A stretch of DNA of 64,000 bases, from the IMG/VR virus record IMGVR_UViG_3300027708_000059, one strand, 5' to 3'. Every line of letters starts with the position of its first letter. Within the stretch, counting starts at the first letter, position 1. Of the stretch, positions 8,976 through 39,250 are shown piece by piece. The notes under the pieces were generated by a model. The model was not told the origin of the DNA, did not search any database, and saw only the letters and a program-made list of their open reading frames with translations. The translations under genes and the position numbers were made by a program. Source of the stretch: a virus.

Positions 8976-9080
8976 ATTTAGTTTAGTTTAGTTAAATTAG
9001 CCCAAAGATACGTATTAATTTTTATATTTACCAAATTAATTTAACTTATTTAGTTATATAGTTTAATCAAGTTGGTTATA

Positions 9081-26624: not shown

Positions 26625-27017
26625 ATGCCATTAGAATTTAAAAAGTATGAATCAGCAGAAGCAGGTATTTTCGAAGATCTTGGAACTATCAGATCTGTTG
26701 CAGGTAAAGGCGGAGAAATTGGTTTCATTCCAAAGAATTGGAATAACACTGCAAAGAACGTTGCAATTGTTATCTTCAAGAAGAATGGTACTTCTGCCAC
26801 AGTATCAGCAAGCAAGCCACTAAGCGTTGCACTGCGTGCTAAAGAAGTCAGCATTCGTCAGTTGATGAAGTTTCAGTTAACTGAAGCTCCTAACGGAACA
26901 ATCTTTGTCAGTATGCCAGGTGGTGGTGCTCCAATTCAAAAGCACGCTGTTGACAGCATCAAAGATGAAGACTTTGAGGTGGAGGAATTGTCTCACGAGG
27001 ACACTATTGCAATGTAA
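26625..27017 (+). CDS. early protein, GC-anomalous (about 43% GC), acidic C-terminus
   Basis: The ORF track start at 26610 is TTG; the first ATG is at 26625. Followed by a strong terminator. Composition differs from the neighbouring genes. Confidence 0.55.
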   Translation: MPLEFKKYESAEAGIFEDLGTIRSVAGKGGEIGFIPKNWNNTAKNVAIVIFKKNGTSATVSASKPLSVALRAKEVSIRQLMKFQLTEAPNGTIFVSMPGGGAPIQKHAVDSIKDEDFEVEELSHEDTIAM

Positions 27018-27025
27018 TGCAATCT

Positions 27026-27057
27026 AAGAAAGGGCTAATCGCCCTTTCTTTTCTTTT
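27026..27057 (+). terminator. rho-independent terminator
   Basis: GAAAGGGC-taatc-GCCCTTTC followed by TTTTCTTTT. Confidence 0.7.
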
Positions 27058-27377
27058 ATATACAATCTTTAAGCTGTAAACTGCAAGAGAATAGTAAACT
27101 TTATATAGTATTTGTATATAATATAATAGGTGTATCAACAGTCTTGGAATATAAACAACATTTTCAAACAGCTATATTATACAAATGTAACATACATATA
27201 GCATTAACATATTACAATTGTAATGAGACACAATAATCAGATGTACACTTATAAGATAGAGATAGGCTTATAAGAGCAAAGCAGGTACATCAGTGATAAA
27301 TATTTAATGCATTAGATTGTTATTAAATATCATTCTCATTGCAATTGTATTTTTATTCACACACAAAAAACAAAATT

Positions 27378-27527
27378 ATGAAAGAGTATATAATTACATA
27401 CCAACGTACAGATGGTTCTTTTAGATTTACATTCATTGATGCTAATAACATTGATCAAGCTAAAGAATTAGTATATAATGATAAATTAGATTGTGTTCAG
27501 ATATTAAGTGCTGAATGTAATTACTAA
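27378..27527 (+). CDS. small early protein (49 aa)
   Basis: An internal ATG of the 27339 ORF sits about 18 nt after the conserved TTCACACACA motif. Confidence 0.35.
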   Translation: MKEYIITYQRTDGSFRFTFIDANNIDQAKELVYNDKLDCVQILSAECNY

Positions 27528-27542
27528 AGTTTATTCTCCTGG

Positions 27543-27596
27543 GACACAATAATCGTCAACTGTGGTCATCATGCTACACGTTTGGGTTATTGTGTC
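27543..27596. repeat. perfect 10-bp inverted repeat with 34-nt spacer
   Basis: GACACAATAA ... TTATTGTGTC, inside a 340-bp noncoding stretch. Confidence 0.5.
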
Positions 27597-27880
27597 TACG
27601 AGATTTTAATGCACCAATCTATCTTCCCAAGGGATAGCAGTTATAACATAGTCGAGGTTAGTAGACTTTATATAATCAACTTAAGATAAGGTTATATAAA
27701 GAACGAAAGCCTAAAATCCACATATTGGAGTAGACGTACAAAAATGTTATAGCTGAGTGCAGAGGGATTTTATGTGGTGATACATGGATTAACCAAATAT
27801 ATTGGACAATTAATTGTATTCCAGACAGCAGGAAGACTGCTCACCACATTTTTCATTTACACACATTAAATAATAATTAT

Positions 27881-28081
27881 ATGAACAAACAATTTCTATT
27901 ACAAATGCTTGAATTATCAAACACTAACAGACCATTTAAATATGTAAGTGAGTTATTGTTACAAATAGCTGTTGATCCTGAGCTTGATGATAATGTATCT
28001 ATTGATGATTTTGATAATGAGTTCTATTCAGTTAGGAGTATTAGCTGGATTAAACAATGTTTCAATTTTAATTTAAAATAA
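27881..28081 (+). CDS. hypothetical early protein
   Basis: ORF preceded by the CACACA motif. Confidence 0.4.
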   Translation: MNKQFLLQMLELSNTNRPFKYVSELLLQIAVDPELDDNVSIDDFDNEFYSVRSISWIKQCFNFNLK

Positions 28082-28111
28082 TATTAATTAAACCTTATAA
28101 ATCAATTAGTT

Positions 28112-28483
28112 ATGAATGCAGCAATAGAATTTAACAGTTTTGTTACAGGTAAACCAGATGTTATATGTGCTTATGTAAGAAAGGTAAATTATGGTGAAGA
28201 TCATTATAATGTAAGTCTTCCATTGGGATATACAGAGGAACAATATGCTAATTTTATGCTTGATCTAGATTTTACATATGATAATGGATTTGGAGGACAA
28301 GAAGTAGATGGTGAAATATGGTTTAAAGATGGTACATGGGCTGATAGGGGAGAATATGATGGTTCAGAATGGTGGAACTATCATAAATGTCCTAAAGTAC
28401 CAACATTTCTTTATCCTTTAGAAGAAGAATTACCTTTTGATCAGGCAAATTATTGGGATGGTGATGAAACATCTAAACAATAA
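28112..28483 (+). CDS. hypothetical early protein
   Basis: ORF preceded by the conserved TTATAAATCAATTAGTT-ATG element. Confidence 0.45.
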   Translation: MNAAIEFNSFVTGKPDVICAYVRKVNYGEDHYNVSLPLGYTEEQYANFMLDLDFTYDNGFGGQEVDGEIWFKDGTWADRGEYDGSEWWNYHKCPKVPTFLYPLEEELPFDQANYWDGDETSKQ

Positions 28484-28523
28484 TTTTAAACAACAATTAT
28501 AAATCATTAAACTACAATTAGTT

Positions 28524-28676
28524 ATGAAAAAAGATTATTCAATACAGTTAATAATAATGTTAATATTTGGAGCATTGTTATTTATAATAGCAACAAGTTC
28601 TTGTTCTGTAAATAGAGGAGGATATAAAGCTCCTAAAACATGGCATTGTGTAGTTGGTAAACATCAATTGAGATGA
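28524..28676 (+). CDS. tiny secreted/membrane peptide (50 aa)
   Basis: MKKDYSIQLIIMLIFGALLFIIATSSCS... Signal peptide followed by Cys. Preceded by the conserved upstream element. Coordinates +/-2. Confidence 0.3.
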   Translation: MKKDYSIQLIIMLIFGALLFIIATSSCSVNRGGYKAPKTWHCVVGKHQLR

Positions 28677-28719
28677 TAATTTCAAATAAATATTATAAAC
28701 AATTATAAATCAATCAATT

Positions 28720-28947
28720 ATGAAAGAAAGTTTAGAAAAATTCACAGCCATTATATTTGATGGTAAAATAGACATCAATGATTTCTATCATGCTAGCTTT
28801 ACAGATAGATGTATTAGATTCCAGGGTAAAGCTAATAGTGATGTAATACATAAATACAAGGATGCAGGTTGGAAATTCACATTAGATGATAGTGCTACTA
28901 TTATAGAAGGTGATATGGATAATGTATCTTTAATATTCACATTTTAA
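28720..28947 (+). CDS. hypothetical early protein
   Basis: ORF preceded by the conserved upstream element. Confidence 0.4.
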   Translation: MKESLEKFTAIIFDGKIDINDFYHASFTDRCIRFQGKANSDVIHKYKDAGWKFTLDDSATIIEGDMDNVSLIFTF

Positions 28948-30649: not shown

Positions 30650-31044
30650 AAAAGCTAATAACATTAGTTATTACAATGGTAATAACAATAACAATTTATG
30701 CACAAGACAGTACAGTGTTAAAATCAGAAGCTCAGAAAATGTGTACTTGGAATGACACATTAAGAGATTGGAACTGTCCTGATGTTTTATACAAAGAAGT
30801 AGCAATTGTATTAAAGAATGAGGTGTTCTATGTAAATGATGAATATAATTCAAAATATAAATTGACTTCCAAGGGTGATTTAACAAAGTATGATGAGTAC
30901 AATTTAATTGTTTTCAATAATGTAATTGACAAAGATGGTGAAAGATGTGTTTTGTCTATGATTACACTTGTAAATGGTAATACGTCAATGTACATTGATT
31001 ACAAAAATAAACAATTGAGATATTTTTTCAATATCCCAAATTAA
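30646..31044 (+). CDS. secreted protein (signal peptide)
   Basis: N-terminal MKKLITLVITMVITITIYAQ. Confidence 0.45.
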   Translation: MKKLITLVITMVITITIYAQDSTVLKSEAQKMCTWNDTLRDWNCPDVLYKEVAIVLKNEVFYVNDEYNSKYKLTSKGDLTKYDEYNLIVFNNVIDKDGERCVLSMITLVNGNTSMYIDYKNKQLRYFFNIPN

Positions 31045-31074
31045 ACATTAAATCAAAATTTAAACTAGAAAGCC

Positions 31075-31629
31075 ATGGCAACAAAATTATCTTACAAAAA
31101 CGCAACAGAAAAGAAAGAAGTTAGAGATTTTTTATTCTCTTTATTTGCAAAACATCATTTTAATAAAATAGTTGGATTACCTGGTCCAGATATAAATGAT
31201 TATATATCGTTTTGTAAATCACATGGGTATAAGAAGTTTAAAATGTATGAAATGGATGCTGTTATTCTTAAGAAACAGTTAAAAAAGATTAAAACACACA
31301 GAGCATCATTAATACATGGAGACATAATCAAAGCTAATCCTAATAGAAAAGATGTACTCTATGATCTTGATTATTGCGTAACTGTTAGATATATGAAGGA
31401 ACATATTGAAAAATTCAATAATAACTTCATTATGACATTTAGCAGAAGAATCAAAGACATTGAAACTATTACATCATTCTTTCAGGCAAAAGATGAAGAG
31501 GTTATATCTATTGTTACAAAGTTCTACCCAAGAGAACATAAGATTTACAAGACAGATAAAGGAAATGAATACATATATATTAATTACAGAGATACATCTA
31601 ATATGTGTTGTATAGCTAAAATAAATTAA
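31075..31629 (+). CDS. hypothetical protein
   Basis: 184-aa ORF. Confidence 0.45.
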   Translation: MATKLSYKNATEKKEVRDFLFSLFAKHHFNKIVGLPGPDINDYISFCKSHGYKKFKMYEMDAVILKKQLKKIKTHRASLIHGDIIKANPNRKDVLYDLDYCVTVRYMKEHIEKFNNNFIMTFSRRIKDIETITSFFQAKDEEVISIVTKFYPREHKIYKTDKGNEYIYINYRDTSNMCCIAKIN

Positions 31630-32393: not shown

Positions 32394-32606
32394 ATGGCAA
32401 CATTAGTATGGAGTAGCAAAGACTACTCAAGACATCACATTCAAGTGTCAGAAACAAATGACAATGTAAATAAGCTAATGAATAGCATATTTACTTATTC
32501 CAGGGAAAAGAGTGAGAGGATATTTGTTAGTAATAACAGATATTATTATGCTCCAAGCCCAGAATACAAAGCATTCGTAGTTAGATTTAAAGGAATTAAA
32601 AAATAA
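32394..32606 (+). CDS. hypothetical protein
   Basis: ORF. Confidence 0.35.
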   Translation: MATLVWSSKDYSRHHIQVSETNDNVNKLMNSIFTYSREKSERIFVSNNRYYYAPSPEYKAFVVRFKGIKK

Positions 32607-32612
32607 TAAAAA

Positions 32613-32987
32613 GTGAAACACAAATTTATAAAAACAGAAGATATATGGTATATTGACTTACCAGAATTTATTGAACAAGGATTAGGTACCAAAGCTAATT
32701 TAATGATGGTTGCAGGAGCAGATGTAATGTTAGACATTCTATCTAATGATGGAAATGAAATCACATTAGAATTTTCTAGTGAACCAATTGAAGGTAGCCA
32801 ACATACATTAGTCAAACAAAGATTTGGTTTAGATAAAGAACTATTAAGTAAAATAGGACATGCACCTGTAGATTATGGTGCTTATTATAACTGGAAAGAA
32901 AATAACAGTCAATCTGTTTGGTTATGTCCTGTTACAGAATATGTATTTAATGGAGCATATCCAGAAAAAATATACGTAAAAGTTTAA
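32613..32987 (+). CDS. hypothetical protein
   Basis: ORF. Confidence 0.45.
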   Translation: MKHKFIKTEDIWYIDLPEFIEQGLGTKANLMMVAGADVMLDILSNDGNEITLEFSSEPIEGSQHTLVKQRFGLDKELLSKIGHAPVDYGAYYNWKENNSQSVWLCPVTEYVFNGAYPEKIYVKV

Positions 32988-32988
32988 T

Positions 32989-33165
32989 ATGGAACTAATT
33001 TTCAATTGGTGCGTAGATGTATTAATATTCCTAGCCAATGTGCTAGGAATAACATACAAAGAGATTAATGTATGGATATTCTGTATAATAGAACCTATTG
33101 TATTTATATACATGTTAACATTAATTATTAAACAAAACAGATATATTAAAAGAATTATAAACTAA
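32989..33165 (+). CDS. tiny membrane peptide (58 aa)
   Basis: ATG one base after the upstream stop. Sequence MELIFNWCVDVLIFLANVLGITY... Coordinates +/-2. Confidence 0.3.
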   Translation: MELIFNWCVDVLIFLANVLGITYKEINVWIFCIIEPIVFIYMLTLIIKQNRYIKRIIN

Positions 33166-33469
33166 TCACAACCTGTCGTGATCCAAATCTTAATTAGATC
33201 ATTTGCCCTTGCACCCTTGTCTCAGGGTTGGGATAAACATAGATTACTTGACTTTCTTCTTCTAATTAAGATGTATGAGGTCTTTTTAAAGATAAAGTAA
33301 TCAGGGAGGTTTCTCTGTACCAGAACAGAAGCTTATTGATCATTGTTTATAGGTCTTTAGTTGGTTCTACCCTAACTATTGATCTATAAATGATGATTTA
33401 TTGATTGATAAATTATGGCTGATATGGCGGATATATGGCGGATTAAAATCATTTTGTTGACATCACCAA

Positions 33470-33502
33470 TATGATGAAATATAGTTGTATATTTGTCAAA
33501 TT
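33470..33502 (+). promoter_or_regulatory. promoter-like element (TTGACA-17 nt-TATAGT, then TATATTTG)
   Basis: Read directly in the sequence. Its function is uncertain in a Bacteroidota context. Confidence 0.3.
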
Positions 33503-33599
33503 CAGTAGTATGACTACTGATATATGAGAAAAAGTAAACCAATAGCTTTACCAATAGGTATGTTTAGTAAAGATATAGCTTTACATATTATGAGCTATT

Positions 33600-33880
33600 T
33601 AGTTTACATAATAAATGATTAATCCACCAAAAAGTGCCTTATATGACACATTATGATGTATTTATGCGACATTTAAGACACATTATCATACCAAAAAGTG
33701 CATTATACGACACTTTAAGCAACATAAAAATTAGAAATATAAATCTAAAAACATAAAAATTAGGCGCAAAAGAATATAAATAGGAGCAAATTAGAAATAT
33801 ATATCTAAAAGTATACGCAATAGGGTATAAATAGACAGAATATTAAGAATTTATATGCTAAAGGGTATAAACCGTTCCAA
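33600..33880. repeat. iteron-like direct repeat cluster
   Basis: CCAAAAAGTGC(C/A)TTATA(T/C)GACAC occurs twice, GACACATTAT twice, TTAGAAATATA(A/T)ATCTAAAA twice, and GGGTATAAA twice. No ORF spans the region. Confidence 0.5.
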
Positions 33881-33908
33881 TTTGTCACACCTTCAAATAA
33901 ATTAAATT

Positions 33909-34142
33909 ATGGATCATCCAGTAACAATATTAAGAAATAGATTAATTAAAATAGGTATAACCATTGAAATGGTTAGTAACTATCCATGGATATACTTAGA
34001 TAAGGTTAATGGTAATGTAGTGAAGGAAAAATACTTTGCTAATCATGGCTTTACAATAGGATTTAATCCTGCAAAAGTGGGAGATGTATTTAGTTACACT
34101 GATCTTAAAGAAATATTTAAAATTATTAGAAAATATAAATAA
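33909..34142 (+). CDS. hypothetical protein
   Basis: ORF immediately after the repeat region. Confidence 0.4.
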   Translation: MDHPVTILRNRLIKIGITIEMVSNYPWIYLDKVNGNVVKEKYFANHGFTIGFNPAKVGDVFSYTDLKEIFKIIRKYK

Positions 34143-34144
34143 TT

Positions 34145-34348
34145 ATGGCGGACATAACAAAATGCTTCGGAGAAGAAGATGAAATCATCTGCCCTTATAG
34201 AGACCGTTGTTACAGATTTACAGCAAAAGCTGATGAATATCAAAGTTACTTTCAAGGGATGCCACTTAAAAATGATAAATGCGACCACTATTGGGGAGAT
34301 GGTGGAGAAAATATCTGGAATCAATCAACAGAAATAGAAACATTATGA
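34145..34348 (+). CDS. Cys-rich small protein
   Basis: C..C...C and CDHYW cysteine pattern. Confidence 0.4.
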   Translation: MADITKCFGEEDEIICPYRDRCYRFTAKADEYQSYFQGMPLKNDKCDHYWGDGGENIWNQSTEIETL

Positions 34349-35641: not shown

Positions 35642-37594
35642 ATGAAAGTTTATATCTATGACATAGAAACTATGCAGGAGTTATTCCTAATAGGCTTATT
35701 TGATCCAGAGACAAAAGAATATCAAGAGTTTGAAATAAGTAGATGGAATAATTCACTTGACAGGTTCATTAAGTTCATAGAGAATAAAGATGAATATTAT
35801 TGGGTGGGCTATAACAATCTACGTTTTGACAGTCAGGTGATTGAATATGTTATTAAGAATTATGATGATTGGCATCATCTATCTGGTCTTGAAATATGTG
35901 CTAAAATTGCACAGAAAGCAGCAGATGTGATTCATGATGCTAATTATGATGTATTTCCTGAATACAGGGAACATGAACTCTCATTGAAACAATTAGATTT
36001 ATTTAAAATAAACCATTTCGATAATAAGAATCGTATGGTGAGCTTAAAAAGATTGGAGTTTGAGATGGATCTTGAGAACATTGAAGAGATGCCCATTCAT
36101 CATCAAAAAATTGATATGTCGAAAAAAGACATAATTCTCACCATGAACTATTGTAGAAATGATGTAATGGCTACTTATGAGTTCTATAAGATAACTACAG
36201 GTGATACAGAGCATCCTTTGTATAAAGGAAATAATCAGATACAGCTCAGAATGGATATAAAGGAAGAATTTGGTATTAACTGTCTTAATTATTCTGACAG
36301 TAAAATTGGTGATGAGATGATTAAGAAGTATTATTGCCAAGAGAAGGGTATAGAATATGCACAGCTACCAAAGAAAGGTTATTTTAGAACAGAAATCAAT
36401 GTAAAGAATTGTATTGCCAGTTATGTAGAATTTAAAACACCACAGCTAAAAGAGTTCCTCAAGAAGATTAAAGCCATTAAACTAAAGCTGTTAGATGATT
36501 TTAAAGAGAGTGTAGTGTTTTATGATAACACCTATTCATTCATGAAGGGTGGTTTGCATACAGAGAATAGTCCAAAGATATTTGAAGCTGATGATGAATA
36601 TGAAATCATTGATTGGGATGTATCTTCTTATTATCCTGCGATCATCATTAACAATGAGAAATATCCACAACATCTAGGTAAAGATTTTCTTAGAGGATAT
36701 AAGCAAATGTTTGATAAGAGACTAGAACTAAAGCCTTTAGCTAAGACAGATAAGAAGATTAAAGGGATTGTTGGTGCTCTTAAGCTCGCTGTTAACTCTG
36801 TTTATGGTAAAAGTTCTGACATGCAGAATTGGATATATGATAGACAACTAACTATGTTTACCACCATAACTGGTGAACTATCACTAATGATGTTAATTGA
36901 AGCATATGAACTTAGAGGTATACATGTTATATCTGCTAATACAGATGGTGTAACACTGAGAGTTAAGAAATGTGATCTTGAACTAATGAAAGCTATTAAC
37001 AATTGGTGGATGGACCTCACTAGTTATGAGTTAGAACGCACTGATTATAAGAAGATTATATTTTCAACAGTTAATGATTACCTAGCAATTAAAACAGATG
37101 GAGAAGTTAAAAAGAAAGGAGATTTCCTCACAGATTTCGAATTACATAAGAACAAAAGTGCTAGAATTGTACCATTGGCACTTGAACAATATTATATTCA
37201 CGATATACCTGTTGACATTACTATTAGCAGTCATAATAATATCTTTGACTTCTGCCTAAGACAAAAAGCAAGTAGGGATTTTCATTATGAAGGGCACACT
37301 AAGAATGGTAAAACAGTGTATAATAAGCTTATTCGTTATTATGTCTCTAATACAGGAGAGAAACTAATGAAGGTAAAGAATGATAGCTGTACAACAAATG
37401 CTGCTCCTATTAGTCAAGTTGAAGCTGGTGAATGGGTAATGACCGTATGTAATCATCTTACAAAGGATCATCCTCTATCTAATATCAATTATGAGTATTA
37501 TATAGAGAAAGCAAATAGAATCATACATAAGATACAGCTAGAAGGTAAGAAAAGAAAAGTCAATATTGACAAAAACCAATTAACATTATTCTAA
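35642..37594 (+). CDS. family B DNA polymerase with 3'-5' exonuclease domain
   Basis: Exo I YIYDIET, Exo II GYNNLRFD, Exo III YCRND. Pol motif A DVSSYYPA, motif B KLAVNSVYGK, motif C ISANTDGV. Confidence 0.8.
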   Translation: MKVYIYDIETMQELFLIGLFDPETKEYQEFEISRWNNSLDRFIKFIENKDEYYWVGYNNLRFDSQVIEYVIKNYDDWHHLSGLEICAKIAQKAADVIHDANYDVFPEYREHELSLKQLDLFKINHFDNKNRMVSLKRLEFEMDLENIEEMPIHHQKIDMSKKDIILTMNYCRNDVMATYEFYKITTGDTEHPLYKGNNQIQLRMDIKEEFGINCLNYSDSKIGDEMIKKYYCQEKGIEYAQLPKKGYFRTEINVKNCIASYVEFKTPQLKEFLKKIKAIKLKLLDDFKESVVFYDNTYSFMKGGLHTENSPKIFEADDEYEIIDWDVSSYYPAIIINNEKYPQHLGKDFLRGYKQMFDKRLELKPLAKTDKKIKGIVGALKLAVNSVYGKSSDMQNWIYDRQLTMFTTITGELSLMMLIEAYELRGIHVISANTDGVTLRVKKCDLELMKAINNWWMDLTSYELERTDYKKIIFSTVNDYLAIKTDGEVKKKGDFLTDFELHKNKSARIVPLALEQYYIHDIPVDITISSHNNIFDFCLRQKASRDFHYEGHTKNGKTVYNKLIRYYVSNTGEKLMKVKNDSCTTNAAPISQVEAGEWVMTVCNHLTKDHPLSNINYEYYIEKANRIIHKIQLEGKKRKVNIDKNQLTLF

Positions 37595-38460: not shown

Positions 38461-38649
38461 ATGAAAAATTTTGAAGATTGGGAAAGAGAATATCTTACAG
38501 ATTTCATATATTTGCAAGAACAAGGTTATGAATTAGATCGAAAAATTGATGAGCTGATGAATGAACGTACTCCTGCAAATATAGTAGTTATAGACAAAGA
38601 TAAAATATTAGAACATGAACCTATCAAATCTGAAATTCTCCCATTTTAG
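38461..38649 (+). CDS. hypothetical protein
   Basis: ORF. Confidence 0.35.
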   Translation: MKNFEDWEREYLTDFIYLQEQGYELDRKIDELMNERTPANIVVIDKDKILEHEPIKSEILPF

Positions 38650-38680
38650 TTCTATCCAAAGGAGAGGATATAGTTTAGAT

Positions 38681-39250
38681 ATGATTTTTCTTCTCAATTT
38701 AATTGTAGAAGAACAACCAGATCTTGAGAAGCTATGTTCAGAAATTCCAAAGATAGAAGCTATATACCAAGGCATACAAAGAAAGGGACTAATAACAGAA
38801 GAGGGTAAATTAACTCTACCTGGAAAAGAACTAATGGCTTTCTTAGAAACAGAAGAAGATGAATCCTCTGAACTTGTTAAGAAAAAACCTAATGAAGATG
38901 ATTTTAATTCATGGTGGAAAGCCTATCCTGGAACTGATACATTTACACATAAGAACAAAAGTTTTTCAGGTAGTAGAAATCTTAGAGCTAAGAAGGATGA
39001 ATGTAAGATTAAATTTGATAAGATAATAGAAGAAGGAGAATACACTGTAGCTGAATTGATTGAAGCTGTAAAACATGAGGTGCTCCAAAAGAAAGAGAAT
39101 TCTGTAGCAACTAGTATTAACAAAATGACATTCATGCAAAACAGTCTCACCTATTTGAATCAAAGAACATTTGAGCCATTCATAGAGCTTATTAAAGAAG
39201 GACACAAGATTGTAGAAACACAAATTATAAAAGGGAGTACAGACATATGA
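38681..39250 (+). CDS. hypothetical replication-module protein
   Basis: Internal ATG of the 38615 ORF, chosen to avoid overlap with the upstream gene. Its stop overlaps the helicase start. Confidence 0.4.
   Translation: MIFLLNLIVEEQPDLEKLCSEIPKIEAIYQGIQRKGLITEEGKLTLPGKELMAFLETEEDESSELVKKKPNEDDFNSWWKAYPGTDTFTHKNKSFSGSRNLRAKKDECKIKFDKIIEEGEYTVAELIEAVKHEVLQKKENSVATSINKMTFMQNSLTYLNQRTFEPFIELIKEGHKIVETQIIKGSTDI

Follow-up and report, generated by a model that had tools for sequence, protein, structure and literature searches.

We analyzed the 743-bp gene-free gap at positions 33166–33908 of a 64,000-nt stretch of viral DNA (IMG/VR record IMGVR_UViG_3300027708_000059; the whole stretch is hereafter called the window). 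The gap ends at ORF77 (ATG at 33909), the first of eight small open reading frames (ORFs) running into the DNA polymerase gene. We lean toward reading the region as a composite control junction in the intergenic DNA that separates two sets of early genes running in the same direction, and not as a replication origin. The first-pass annotation, made from the letters alone, had called it a candidate origin or operator hub. The operator hub, pictured there as a repressor-binding array, is supported by dyad motifs present in two copies each, by one of these motifs (M) that follows the plan of a HipB operator, keeps a 40-bp phasing and has HipB-like neighbors in other genomes, and by flanking promoter boxes, whereas the iteron origin is not supported.

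We propose that transcription of the upstream small-gene operon yields an RNA with a structured element of about 150 nt (H1/H2) and a long hairpin (H3) at its 3′ end; these may act as a 3′-end, stability or termination element or may form a separate small RNA. A host sigma-A promoter, P1, would then start a long untranslated leader whose DNA carries four putative protein-binding dyad motifs in two copies each (Pal-D, Pal-A, B and M), and P2 would be a second promoter-like box immediately ahead of ORF77. Each 20-bp M site would take one dimer of a helix-turn-helix (HTH) protein. Because the 40-bp spacing is fixed, two dimers would lie on one face of the helix and could bind cooperatively, and because M2 spans about −38 to −19 of P2, its occupancy would block or tune the entry of RNA polymerase into the string of genes from ORF77 to the polymerase. 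The other dyads would bind other proteins. The repeats, promoters and dyads on which this proposal is built are the following (strand given where one applies).

33414..33443: three ATGGCKGAT units at 10–11 bp spacing, 5′ of P1
33457..33485, plus strand: sigma-70-like element TTGACA-17-TATAGT, 11 of 12 consensus positions
33488..33495, plus strand: P1 −7 box TATATTTG (TAnnTTTG), Bacteroidota sigma-A type
33503..33519, plus strand: hairpin CAGTAGT-ATG-ACTACTG, directly 3′ of P1, unique in the window
33534..33584: Pal-D, GTAAAC-N6-CTTTAC at 33534–33551 and GTAAAG-N6-CTTTAC at 33567–33584
33626..33717: Pal-A, an A-tract plus GTGC-N8-(G)ACAC, at 33634–33649 and 33698–33713
33728..33810: B (AAATTAGAAATATAWATCTAAAA), dyad TTAGA-N8-TCTAA at 33731–33748 and 33791–33808
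33760–33779: M0, a degenerate M-like copy TTAGGCGCAAAAGAATATAA between the two B copies
33811–33830: M1, GTATACGCAATAGGGTATAA, first member of the M pair, dyad TATAC-N8-GTATA
33851–33870: M2, TTATATGCTAAAGGGTATAA, 40 bp from M1 start to start
33876..33888, plus strand: P2 box CCAATTTGTCAC, with core ATTTGTCAC at 33880–33888, 21 nt 5′ of the ORF77 ATG

The two copies of GGGTATAAA noted in the first-pass annotation are present at 33824 and 33864, and both belong to a 20-bp motif, M, with the sequence TTATAYGCNAAAGGGTATAA (TTATAC-N8-GTATAA). An exact-pattern scan of IMG/VR matched M in at least 118 contigs and in many unrelated gene contexts. The matches listed represent 105 distinct contexts. 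A second copy stands exactly 40 bp away in 62 of these and 41 bp away in 6 (68 together), and all remaining offsets from 20 to 150 account for only 5. Direct and inverted partners both occur, and M is co-directional with the genes in 87 cases versus anti-directional in 24; its presence in both orientations suggests a site that acts at the DNA level. The sequence of M is near-identical across contexts while the 20-bp spacer between the two sites varies freely. Contigs have a single M pair each, as does the 64-kb window. In several groups M adjoins genes for DnaB, helicase, primase-polymerase or DNA polymerase, and in other phage groups it follows terminase or portal genes or lies between portal-like and capsid genes. 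A blastn search of the M-pair consensus against cultured phage records returned nothing relevant, and the motif is also absent from the literature searched.

The layout of M resembles that of the Escherichia coli hipBA operators. HipB binds TATCCN8GGATA operators cooperatively, with four such sites, O1–O4, in E. coli (PMC3376134), and M is identical to O1 (TTATCCGCTTAAGGGGATAT) at 15 of 20 positions. In both systems inverted half-sites of 5–6 bp stand 8 bp apart within a site of 20–21 bp, and in both there are multiple sites at a fixed phasing, as for cooperative binding by XRE-family HTH dimers, which for M is a prediction from the sequence. The two differ in the half-site (TATAC in M, TATCC in E. 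coli), in the number and spacing of sites (two sites 40 bp apart in M, versus four in E. coli with O1 and O2 about 28–29 bp apart as counted on the O1O2 oligonucleotide) and in setting, M lying in phage intergenic DNA without a hipBA module and the phage HTH being fused to a GIY-YIG nuclease and not serving as an antitoxin. These features suggest that M is a HipB/XRE-type operator-like site.

Bacterial DNA provides a further connection to HipB. Bacterial genomes totaling 596 Gb contain 98 exact M matches, against about 140 expected by chance (our own estimate), and three of these lie 2–19 nt from a gene for a HipB-like HTH_3 protein.

L229, position 7597, Spirochaetaceae metagenome-assembled genome (MAG): exact M 18-mer near a HipB-like gene, with a second M-like site 41 bp away
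L265, about position 1515, reverse strand, Sphaerochaeta MAG: second M-like site 41 bp away, followed by a gene with a HipA N-terminal domain
L280, about position 162, Motilimonas cestriensis: exact M 18-mer near a HipB-like gene, with further M-like dyads at 27 and 55 bp

A HipB-like gene is likewise adjacent to M in the phage loci L028/L139, L055/L132 and L061, but not in the window or at most M loci. The only cultured-host anchor for M is a prophage in Sphingobacterium alimentarium DSM 22362 (NZ_SMBZ01000011.1; L124/L228), in which the two M sites are convergent and 41 bp apart and lie between a small HTH_23-like gene and a 113-aa ORF, followed by an HNH endonuclease gene.

Several other identities for M were considered and rejected. 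The T4-like late promoter (TATAAATA) is found in one of the two copies only and is not enriched. An RNA hairpin does not fit the occurrence of M in both orientations or its lack of pairing covariation, C-A being commoner than U-A at the key position. The exact bacterial matches are single and at chance level, which does not suit a host regulon site or a DnaA box. Associations of gene families with M inside the polymerase family are confounded by phylogeny.

Two side observations concern M-bearing contigs. The 67-aa Cys-rich product of ORF67 (34145–34348; pattern MxDITxC...C...CYRxTA...C..YWG) has homologues in M-bearing loci of several otherwise unrelated groups (L128, L141, L156, L188, L195, L196 and L200) and gave no informative family or structure match; it was kept only as a weak lead, homologues also being present in M-free loci. 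In addition, about nine viral contigs (including L093, L094, L105, L109, L130, L141, L146 and L001) start or end within about 100 nt of an M pair, where about three would be expected. These are likely assemblies broken at a repeat shared by co-occurring phages, and genome termini are a less likely explanation.

Comparison with close relatives revealed that the locus is mosaic and that genes for HipB-type HTH proteins enter it. We compared six homologous loci, four of them viral (L001, identical to the window, L081, L002 and L003) and two metagenomic (L300 and L299); of the latter, L300 comes from a TARA scaffold and runs colinear with the window at 84%. L002, a relative with 99% identity, lacks window positions 32606–33333 and has two ORFs in place of 33619–33865, and L003, L081 and L299 have one extra ORF each at other points. 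Seen against L002, the segments 31044–31627 (ORF184 alone) and 32606–33333 (ORF124 with DUF6717, ORF58 and H1/H2) are insertions in the window, and the neighboring ORF168 is a divergent allele with 43% identity. The extra ORFs belong to one family of 181–243 aa, present at this locus in four of the six closest relatives (L081, L002, L003 and L299) at three different insertion points. Matches to the GIY-YIG Pfam model are sub-threshold in 7 of 10 family members (best E 0.014), with the Y, Y-G, R, H, E and N residues invariant, and all members except the L003-type have a C-terminal HTH_3 domain. The best solved relative of this HTH domain is HipB(Lp) of Legionella (PDB 8ezt, E 2e-13), and the domain is 43% identical to the HipB-like protein of L265. 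Within this lineage, the HipB-type HTH is found only in these free-standing GIY-YIG-HTH fusion genes. The window contains no GIY-YIG nuclease gene, and the window and L300 are unoccupied (empty) alleles.

The nuclease genes and the mosaic junctions fall at or near M. In L028/L139 and L061 a nuclease gene sits precisely between the two M copies, and in L055/L132 it is 36–53 nt from M; one junction is inside M2 (L002), another is at the start of M1 (L003), and the M pair is collapsed in L081. Because nuclease-HTH genes occupy this locus, some of them between M1 and M2, the M pair may also be a recognition or landing site of mobile genes, and the mobile nuclease-HTH proteins would then recognize M.

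I-TevI is a GIY-YIG nuclease whose C-terminal HTH also represses its own promoter. The phage fusions are similar in joining a GIY-YIG N-terminal domain to a C-terminal HTH, in being encoded by free-standing genes with their own promoter, in their presence or absence among near-identical phages and in having a recognition-type site beside or around the gene. Unlike I-TevI, they have an HTH of the dimeric XRE/HipB type, their presumed target is an intergenic operator pair and not coding sequence, and M is widespread in phages without the gene; cleavage at M is itself a presumption.

The same data could be taken to mean that the repeats have no role for the phage and are debris of homing endonucleases, that is, targets, autoregulatory operators or scars that free-standing GIY-YIG-HTH cassettes left behind as they repeatedly invaded a hyperplastic intergenic spot and were lost again. 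In favor of this view, four of the six closest relatives have the nuclease gene here, at three insertion points, and the junctions coincide with M, the nuclease family is encoded in 12 of 82 polymerase-family loci, the cassettes carry their own TAnnTTTG promoter, and the copy number and orientation of the elements vary between near-identical phages. However, near-identical M copies at an exact 40-bp spacing are found in more than 60 nuclease-free contexts from unrelated groups. Because M and the spacing are kept while the spacer sequence varies, the pattern argues for selection on two binding sites and not for scars. Conservation of the RNA hairpins and of both promoter boxes, P1 and P2, is also independent of the cassette, and the cassette of L014 has no M nearby. 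We therefore consider debris an unlikely explanation for the array as a whole.

A different possibility is that two HipB-type operators, 40 bp apart and once per genome, make the M pair a cis-code common to many unrelated uncultured Bacteroidota phages, and that HipB-like proteins which the carrier phages do not themselves encode read it in trans. The readers could be the GIY-YIG-HipB fusions of co-infecting phages, leading to repression or cleavage in inter-phage competition. They could also be HipBA-type complexes of the host, in which case the phage sites would be decoy operators that hold the toxin complex on replicating DNA. We regard such reading in trans as improbable; if true, it would represent a new class of phage–phage or phage–defence interaction through a non-coding site.

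The proposal of an iteron origin deserves weighing in the light of M. The iterons of the lambda origin have palindromic arms around an A-tract, and M resembles them in form. The M pair, and perhaps the other dyads, would on this account be lambda-style iterons bound by a phage initiator, for example the winged helix-turn-helix (wHTH) protein encoded at 38615–39250, and transcription from P1 would help to open the DNA. Such an origin is consistent with the single M pair per contig, with M lying beside replication genes in several other groups and with the clustering of recombination junctions at M. It is also consistent with the polymerase family, in which the module is always near the genes for the polymerase, the wHTH protein and the helicase. 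The sites share with lambda-type iterons a dyad of about 20 bp, a central A-tract, a helical phasing and, in this family, the nearness of replication genes.

Several observations speak against an origin at this place. Cumulative GC skew, suggested as a check in the first-pass annotation, has its minimum at about 27 kb, at the switch of the coding strand, and no inflection at 33.2–33.9 kb; a minimum located elsewhere is one of the outcomes that the annotation had named as refuting, although the test is weak because the skew of this genome tracks transcription. DnaA boxes (TTATCCACA) are absent from the region, even at one mismatch, and there is no distinct AT-rich block, the GC content of 60-nt windows across 33590–33889 being 22–32% against about 30% for the genome. 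Each motif has only two copies where lambda-type iterons have at least four, and M occurs in either relative orientation, so the array is not a set of three or more direct repeats of 17–22 bp such as define iterons. No initiator gene contains or adjoins the repeats, the wHTH candidate being 4.8 kb away, and the company of wHTH and helicase genes is confined to M loci of the polymerase family, while other phage groups have M among terminase, portal and capsid genes. Moreover, M is linked to genes for HipB-like HTH proteins, and such proteins are repressors and not initiators. An origin is thus distinctly unlikely in our view; we still allow for it because each contig has M at one place only, frequently close to replication genes. 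The skew minimum itself falls within a region of divergent transcription (26900–27900) that contains inverted and direct repeats (for example 27104–27125 / 27173–27194) and opposed TAnnTTTG boxes at 27189(−) and 27801(−), and this region is another candidate regulatory or origin region.

The remaining dyads complete the array proposed for the control junction. The four motifs occupy 33534–33888 with spacings between copies of 33 bp (Pal-D), 64 bp (Pal-A), 60 bp (B) and 40 bp (M). The repeats listed in the first-pass annotation were recovered here at 33627 and 33691 (CCAAAAAGTGCMTTATAYGACAC), 33645 and 33677 (GACACATTAT) and 33731 and 33791 (TTAGAAATATAWATCTAAAA). The two copies of CCAAAAAGTGCMTTATAYGACAC are its sole matches in 64 kb even at 3 mismatches, with 0 in 100 shuffles, and repeated 10-mers number 18, where 300 dinucleotide-preserving shuffles average 1.5 and never exceed 11.

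Pal-D is found only at this locus in 64 kb and is present as a single copy in L002 and L003; related AAAAAGTAAAGCTATAACTTGAC repeats lie 5′ of the first gene in the L085/L147/L151 group. Pal-A includes three GACAC(A/T)TTA units, at 33645, 33677 and 33709, and its family consensus is a palindrome, GTGCAATATATTGCAC, that is perfect in L051. A loose Pal-A pattern also picks up one palindrome near 13.9 kb and another near 17.5 kb, both within coding sequence and presumably matched by chance. The Pal-A1 segment of about 31 bp is inverted between the otherwise colinear window (33633–33663) and L300 (7555–7586), with 93.75% identity over 32 aligned positions on the opposite strand, which argues for a DNA-level site functional in either orientation. 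We rejected Pal-A as an intrinsic terminator: its stems are 4–5 bp only, its T-run is on the minus strand only, and it is inverted in L300. B is likewise confined to this locus in 64 kb, and both copies are conserved in L003 and L300. Matches to B elsewhere are coding sequence (KEKYSSKK...) and were discarded. Bacteroidota LexA-like SOS boxes have the forms GGA-N5-TCC and CTAA-N5-TTAG (PMC8565304), and compared by eye B differs from them in half-site order and in spacing.

Relatives whose polymerases are about 75% identical have a noncoding module with similar elements in another order. It is located about 400 bp 3′ of the polymerase gene, in the order polymerase, ORF126, module, ORF183, ORF68, ORF88 and wHTH gene, and these loci also contain the helicase gene. 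Because it is 3′ of the polymerase gene in these relatives, the module is conserved but has moved relative to that gene, and the noncoding island ahead of a polymerase and helicase block, on which the first-pass annotation had placed weight, is not a conserved arrangement.

The dyads lie between promoter boxes. The first-pass annotation had singled out a consensus-like promoter, TTGACA-17-TATAGT, immediately followed by TATATTTG. Both are present, at 33457–33485 and 33488–33495, slightly displaced from the 33470–33502 first reported, but it is the adjacent TATATTTG that is the conserved promoter element. TTGACA-N16-18-TAnAnT has a single match in 64 kb where our rough estimate of the chance expectation is about two, a promoter scan of 32.5–34.5 kb gave 12 sites versus 14.2 expected from shuffles, and the sigma-70-like element is absent from three of the six homologues (L300, L003 and L299), which keep the adjacent −7 box. 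It is therefore lineage-specific, at chance level and probably fortuitous. Conversely, TGTATATTTG is invariant across the six homologues while the 60 nt upstream vary by indels. P1 agrees with the sigma-A consensus of Bacteroidota (PMC9723704), and transcription from it would start near 33502. It differs from such promoters in lacking a clear −33 element in the window and in being followed by about 400 nt without a conserved ORF.

Immediately 3′ of P1, the hairpin at 33503..33519 is related to hairpins (GGTAGTATTACTACC or CAGTAGTTATACTAC) that the homologous modules contain in L099, L086, L147, L300 and L003. On its 5′ side, the direct repeat ATATGGCGGAT is confirmed as two tandem copies at 33422 and 33433, and a third, looser copy, ATGGCTGAT, lies at 33414. 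The number of these ATGGCKGAT units varies, with 3 in the window and L299, 2 in L003 and a remnant in L300. At the other end of the array, ATTTGTCAC of P2 is conserved in L300 and also in two distant loci, L099 and L075, in which an intrinsic terminator immediately precedes it, and ATTTGTCA is common to P2 and P1. P2 is likely the promoter of the gene string from ORF77 to the polymerase, although it departs from the Bacteroidota consensus.

Upstream of P1, the region contains a candidate structured RNA at 33187–33398. The inverted repeat reported in the first-pass annotation is a perfect 12-bp pair, ATCTTAATTAGA at 33187–33198 and TCTAATTAAGAT at 33261–33272, the 11-mer reported for the right arm being one base off, and it forms the stem of the first of three elements.

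33187..33272, plus strand: H1, 12-bp stem 33187–33198 / 33261–33272 around a conserved 62-nt core
33213–33217 / 33224–33228, plus strand: inner hairpin of H1, ACCCT / AGGGT, invariant in five sequences
33242..33330, plus strand: H2, long-range helix GATTACTT at 33242–33249 / AAGTAATC at 33295–33302, plus a terminal hairpin
33338..33398, plus strand: H3, hairpin of about 23 bp with outer arms 33340–33355 / 33381–33396 and inner arms 33358–33364 / 33371–33378

In L003 and L299 the arms of H1 are swapped wholesale for an unrelated complementary pair, CCTAGTTGTA / TACAACTAGG, at the same position, and in L300 H1 has one G-T wobble, tolerated on the plus strand only. The terminal hairpin of H2, TCTGT-ACCAGA-ACAGA, sits within a 41-nt block (33290–33330) that, among five aligned sequences, is shared without change by the window, L081, L300 and L003; L299 departs from it at one base. 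A profile search detected a distant copy of the block in L052 (4393–4548; E 7e-13), in which 3 compensatory pairs and 1 wobble preserve both helices and 100% of cells pair; this copy is preceded by an upstream terminator and closes with its own hairpin and a T-run. In H3 there are 2 compensatory pairs and 2 one-sided wobble changes, and 95.7% of cells pair. All G-U wobble pairs are on the plus strand, and the folding energy is −65.6 kcal/mol for the plus strand versus −50.1 kcal/mol for the minus strand (z −2.9 versus −1.7). The profile of the H-element matches the window once. Rfam 15 covariance models gave no match at the gathering score in 64 kb and only noise at E 1.6–10 in 32900–34000. 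Our reading, on moderate evidence, is that H1, H2 and H3 form either a small RNA or a structured RNA that closes the upstream operon. H3 itself looks like a terminator or RNA-stability hairpin of that operon, and because the L002 junction is at 33333/33334, H3 lies directly 3′ of a different upstream gene in L002.

This arrangement is reminiscent of the T4-type promoter-plus-stem-loop (PeSL) cassettes (PMC2839356, PMC4122927). As in these cassettes, an early-type host promoter (here P1) stands behind a stem-loop (here H3) among small variable ORFs, a mosaic junction falls at the edge of the element (33333/33334 versus L002), and distant relatives have a terminator directly followed by the P2 box. 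In contrast to PeSLs, H3 and the dyads are single-copy in 64 kb and not a multi-copy family, the promoter is of the TAnnTTTG type, and a long dyad array follows, which PeSLs lack.

The RNA evidence raises the alternative that the main products of the locus are non-coding RNAs, namely H1/H2/H3 and/or a P1-driven RNA of about 130–200 nt ending near Pal-A, with the dyads being RNA hairpins. The compensatory changes support the helices, the L052 copy is bracketed by the upstream terminator and its own hairpin with T-run, and no ORF follows P1 for about 400 nt. In addition, relatives have a transfer-messenger RNA (tmRNA) gene at a comparable place upstream of the polymerase gene, so the neighborhood does hold RNA genes. 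On the other hand, M and Pal-A occur in both orientations and M lacks RNA-type covariation, no promoter is evident ahead of H1, no Rfam family matches, and the folding z-scores of H1/H2 alone are null. A small-RNA locus may hold for 33187–33398 but leaves 33620–33880 unexplained, and as an account of the whole region we find it very doubtful. The tmRNA genes were observed in L011 (6388–6799), L027 (6522–6933), L035 (5329–5746) and L066 (941–1308), 1–2.7 kb upstream of the polymerase gene in three of these relatives, roughly at the position of the noncoding region in the window, and about 6.7 kb upstream in L066; they encode tag peptides such as VKSQSERVAEGEAILASIFATEYALAA. An ARAGORN search found no tRNA or tmRNA in the window.

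The region does appear to be free of conserved coding sequence. It is the largest ORF-poor stretch of the plus-strand block beyond the divergent region near 27–28 kb in a crude gene call. The earlier claim that it holds no ORF longer than 32 codons is correct for ATG starts and fails for GTG and TTG starts, for which the mechanical ORF list includes the following.

33178–33300 and 33634–33756: 40-aa ORFs with GTG starts
33384–33554, minus strand: 56-aa ORF with a TTG start

None of the short ORFs inside the region is conserved, as relatives have frame-breaking indels, and the 32-aa ORF has lost its ATG in L003 and L300.

A number of observations weigh against the control junction that we favor. 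As regards its presumed regulator, we found no XRE or HipB-like HTH gene in the 64-kb window, no HipB-like HTH gene within a few kb of most M pairs and no protein family common to the M-bearing loci. M pairs are highly conserved in many contexts without a nuclease gene; this implies a phage function of M beyond that of a homing target, because a pure homing target should decay or be selected against. The single M pair per contig fits an origin or another one-per-genome site as well. As regards the promoters, P1 shows in the window no clear TTTG of a −33 element at its usual distance, and because P2 (CCAATTTG) lacks the TA of TAnnTTTG, its function as a promoter can only be surmised. As regards the RNA, H3 has no clean U-run, H1/H2 alone are no better folded than shuffles (z about 0.15), and the covariation comes from about three independent lineages.

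The genomic setting is that of a phage likely to infect Bacteroidota. The 64-kb window has a GC content of about 31% (about 30% was used as the genome value in the windowed comparison above), with structural genes on the minus strand (867–26854) and early and replication genes on the plus strand (27339–62611). The replication block contains the following landmarks.

35642–37594, plus strand: family-A DNA polymerase gene
38615–39250: wHTH gene, directly upstream of the DnaB-like helicase gene

The plus-strand block also encodes a GHKL ATPase-domain protein, possibly a topoisomerase subunit, as well as RNR, RecA and PhoH. The ORFs adjoining the region (58–124 aa) have no match to a DNA-binding family in Pfam. 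The polymerase is at best only about 33% identical to those of cultured phages, and a blastn search of the region against cultured phages returned nothing relevant; IMG/VR contains many relatives at about 75% polymerase identity, on contigs of 105–117 kb.

A Shine-Dalgarno core precedes only 3 of 97 genes, and TAnnTTTG boxes are found about 15–45 nt 5′ of start codons at 9010(−), 26049(−), 29247, 29639, 52004 and 57482. TAnnTTTG is the −7 box of flavobacterial and Bacteroidota sigma-A promoters (PMC9723704), and flavobacteria lack Shine-Dalgarno sites (PMC6847099, PMC9723704). A Bacteroidota host is therefore likely, and the M-bearing prophage of Sphingobacterium alimentarium also backs this assignment. 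Elsewhere among the early genes, a 48-nt junction cassette (TAATTT.AAA...ATTATAAA...TTATGAA) occurs three times (28069–28116, 28481–28528 and 28677–28724), each copy ending at the ATG of a successive small early ORF, and looks like a repeated intergenic or translation-start module.

Taken together, the region is ordinary in kind, and its less ordinary contents are a HipB-operator-like pair tied to GIY-YIG-HipB fusions and a structured RNA candidate. A generic label of possible origin can thus be replaced by a testable anatomy of the gate through which this phage family enters its replication genes. The promoter grammar, with TAnnTTTG boxes and no Shine-Dalgarno sites, points to a Bacteroidota host, and the conserved H-element is a candidate new phage RNA. 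M is a 20-bp HipB-operator-like site with a strict 40-bp pairing that is present in at least 118 viral contigs and is apparently undescribed. Its link to the nuclease genes suggests a mobile nuclease that borrows a repressor fold to target conserved regulatory DNA, and the motif offers a handle for finding its binder, for studies of the host or of competition between phages.

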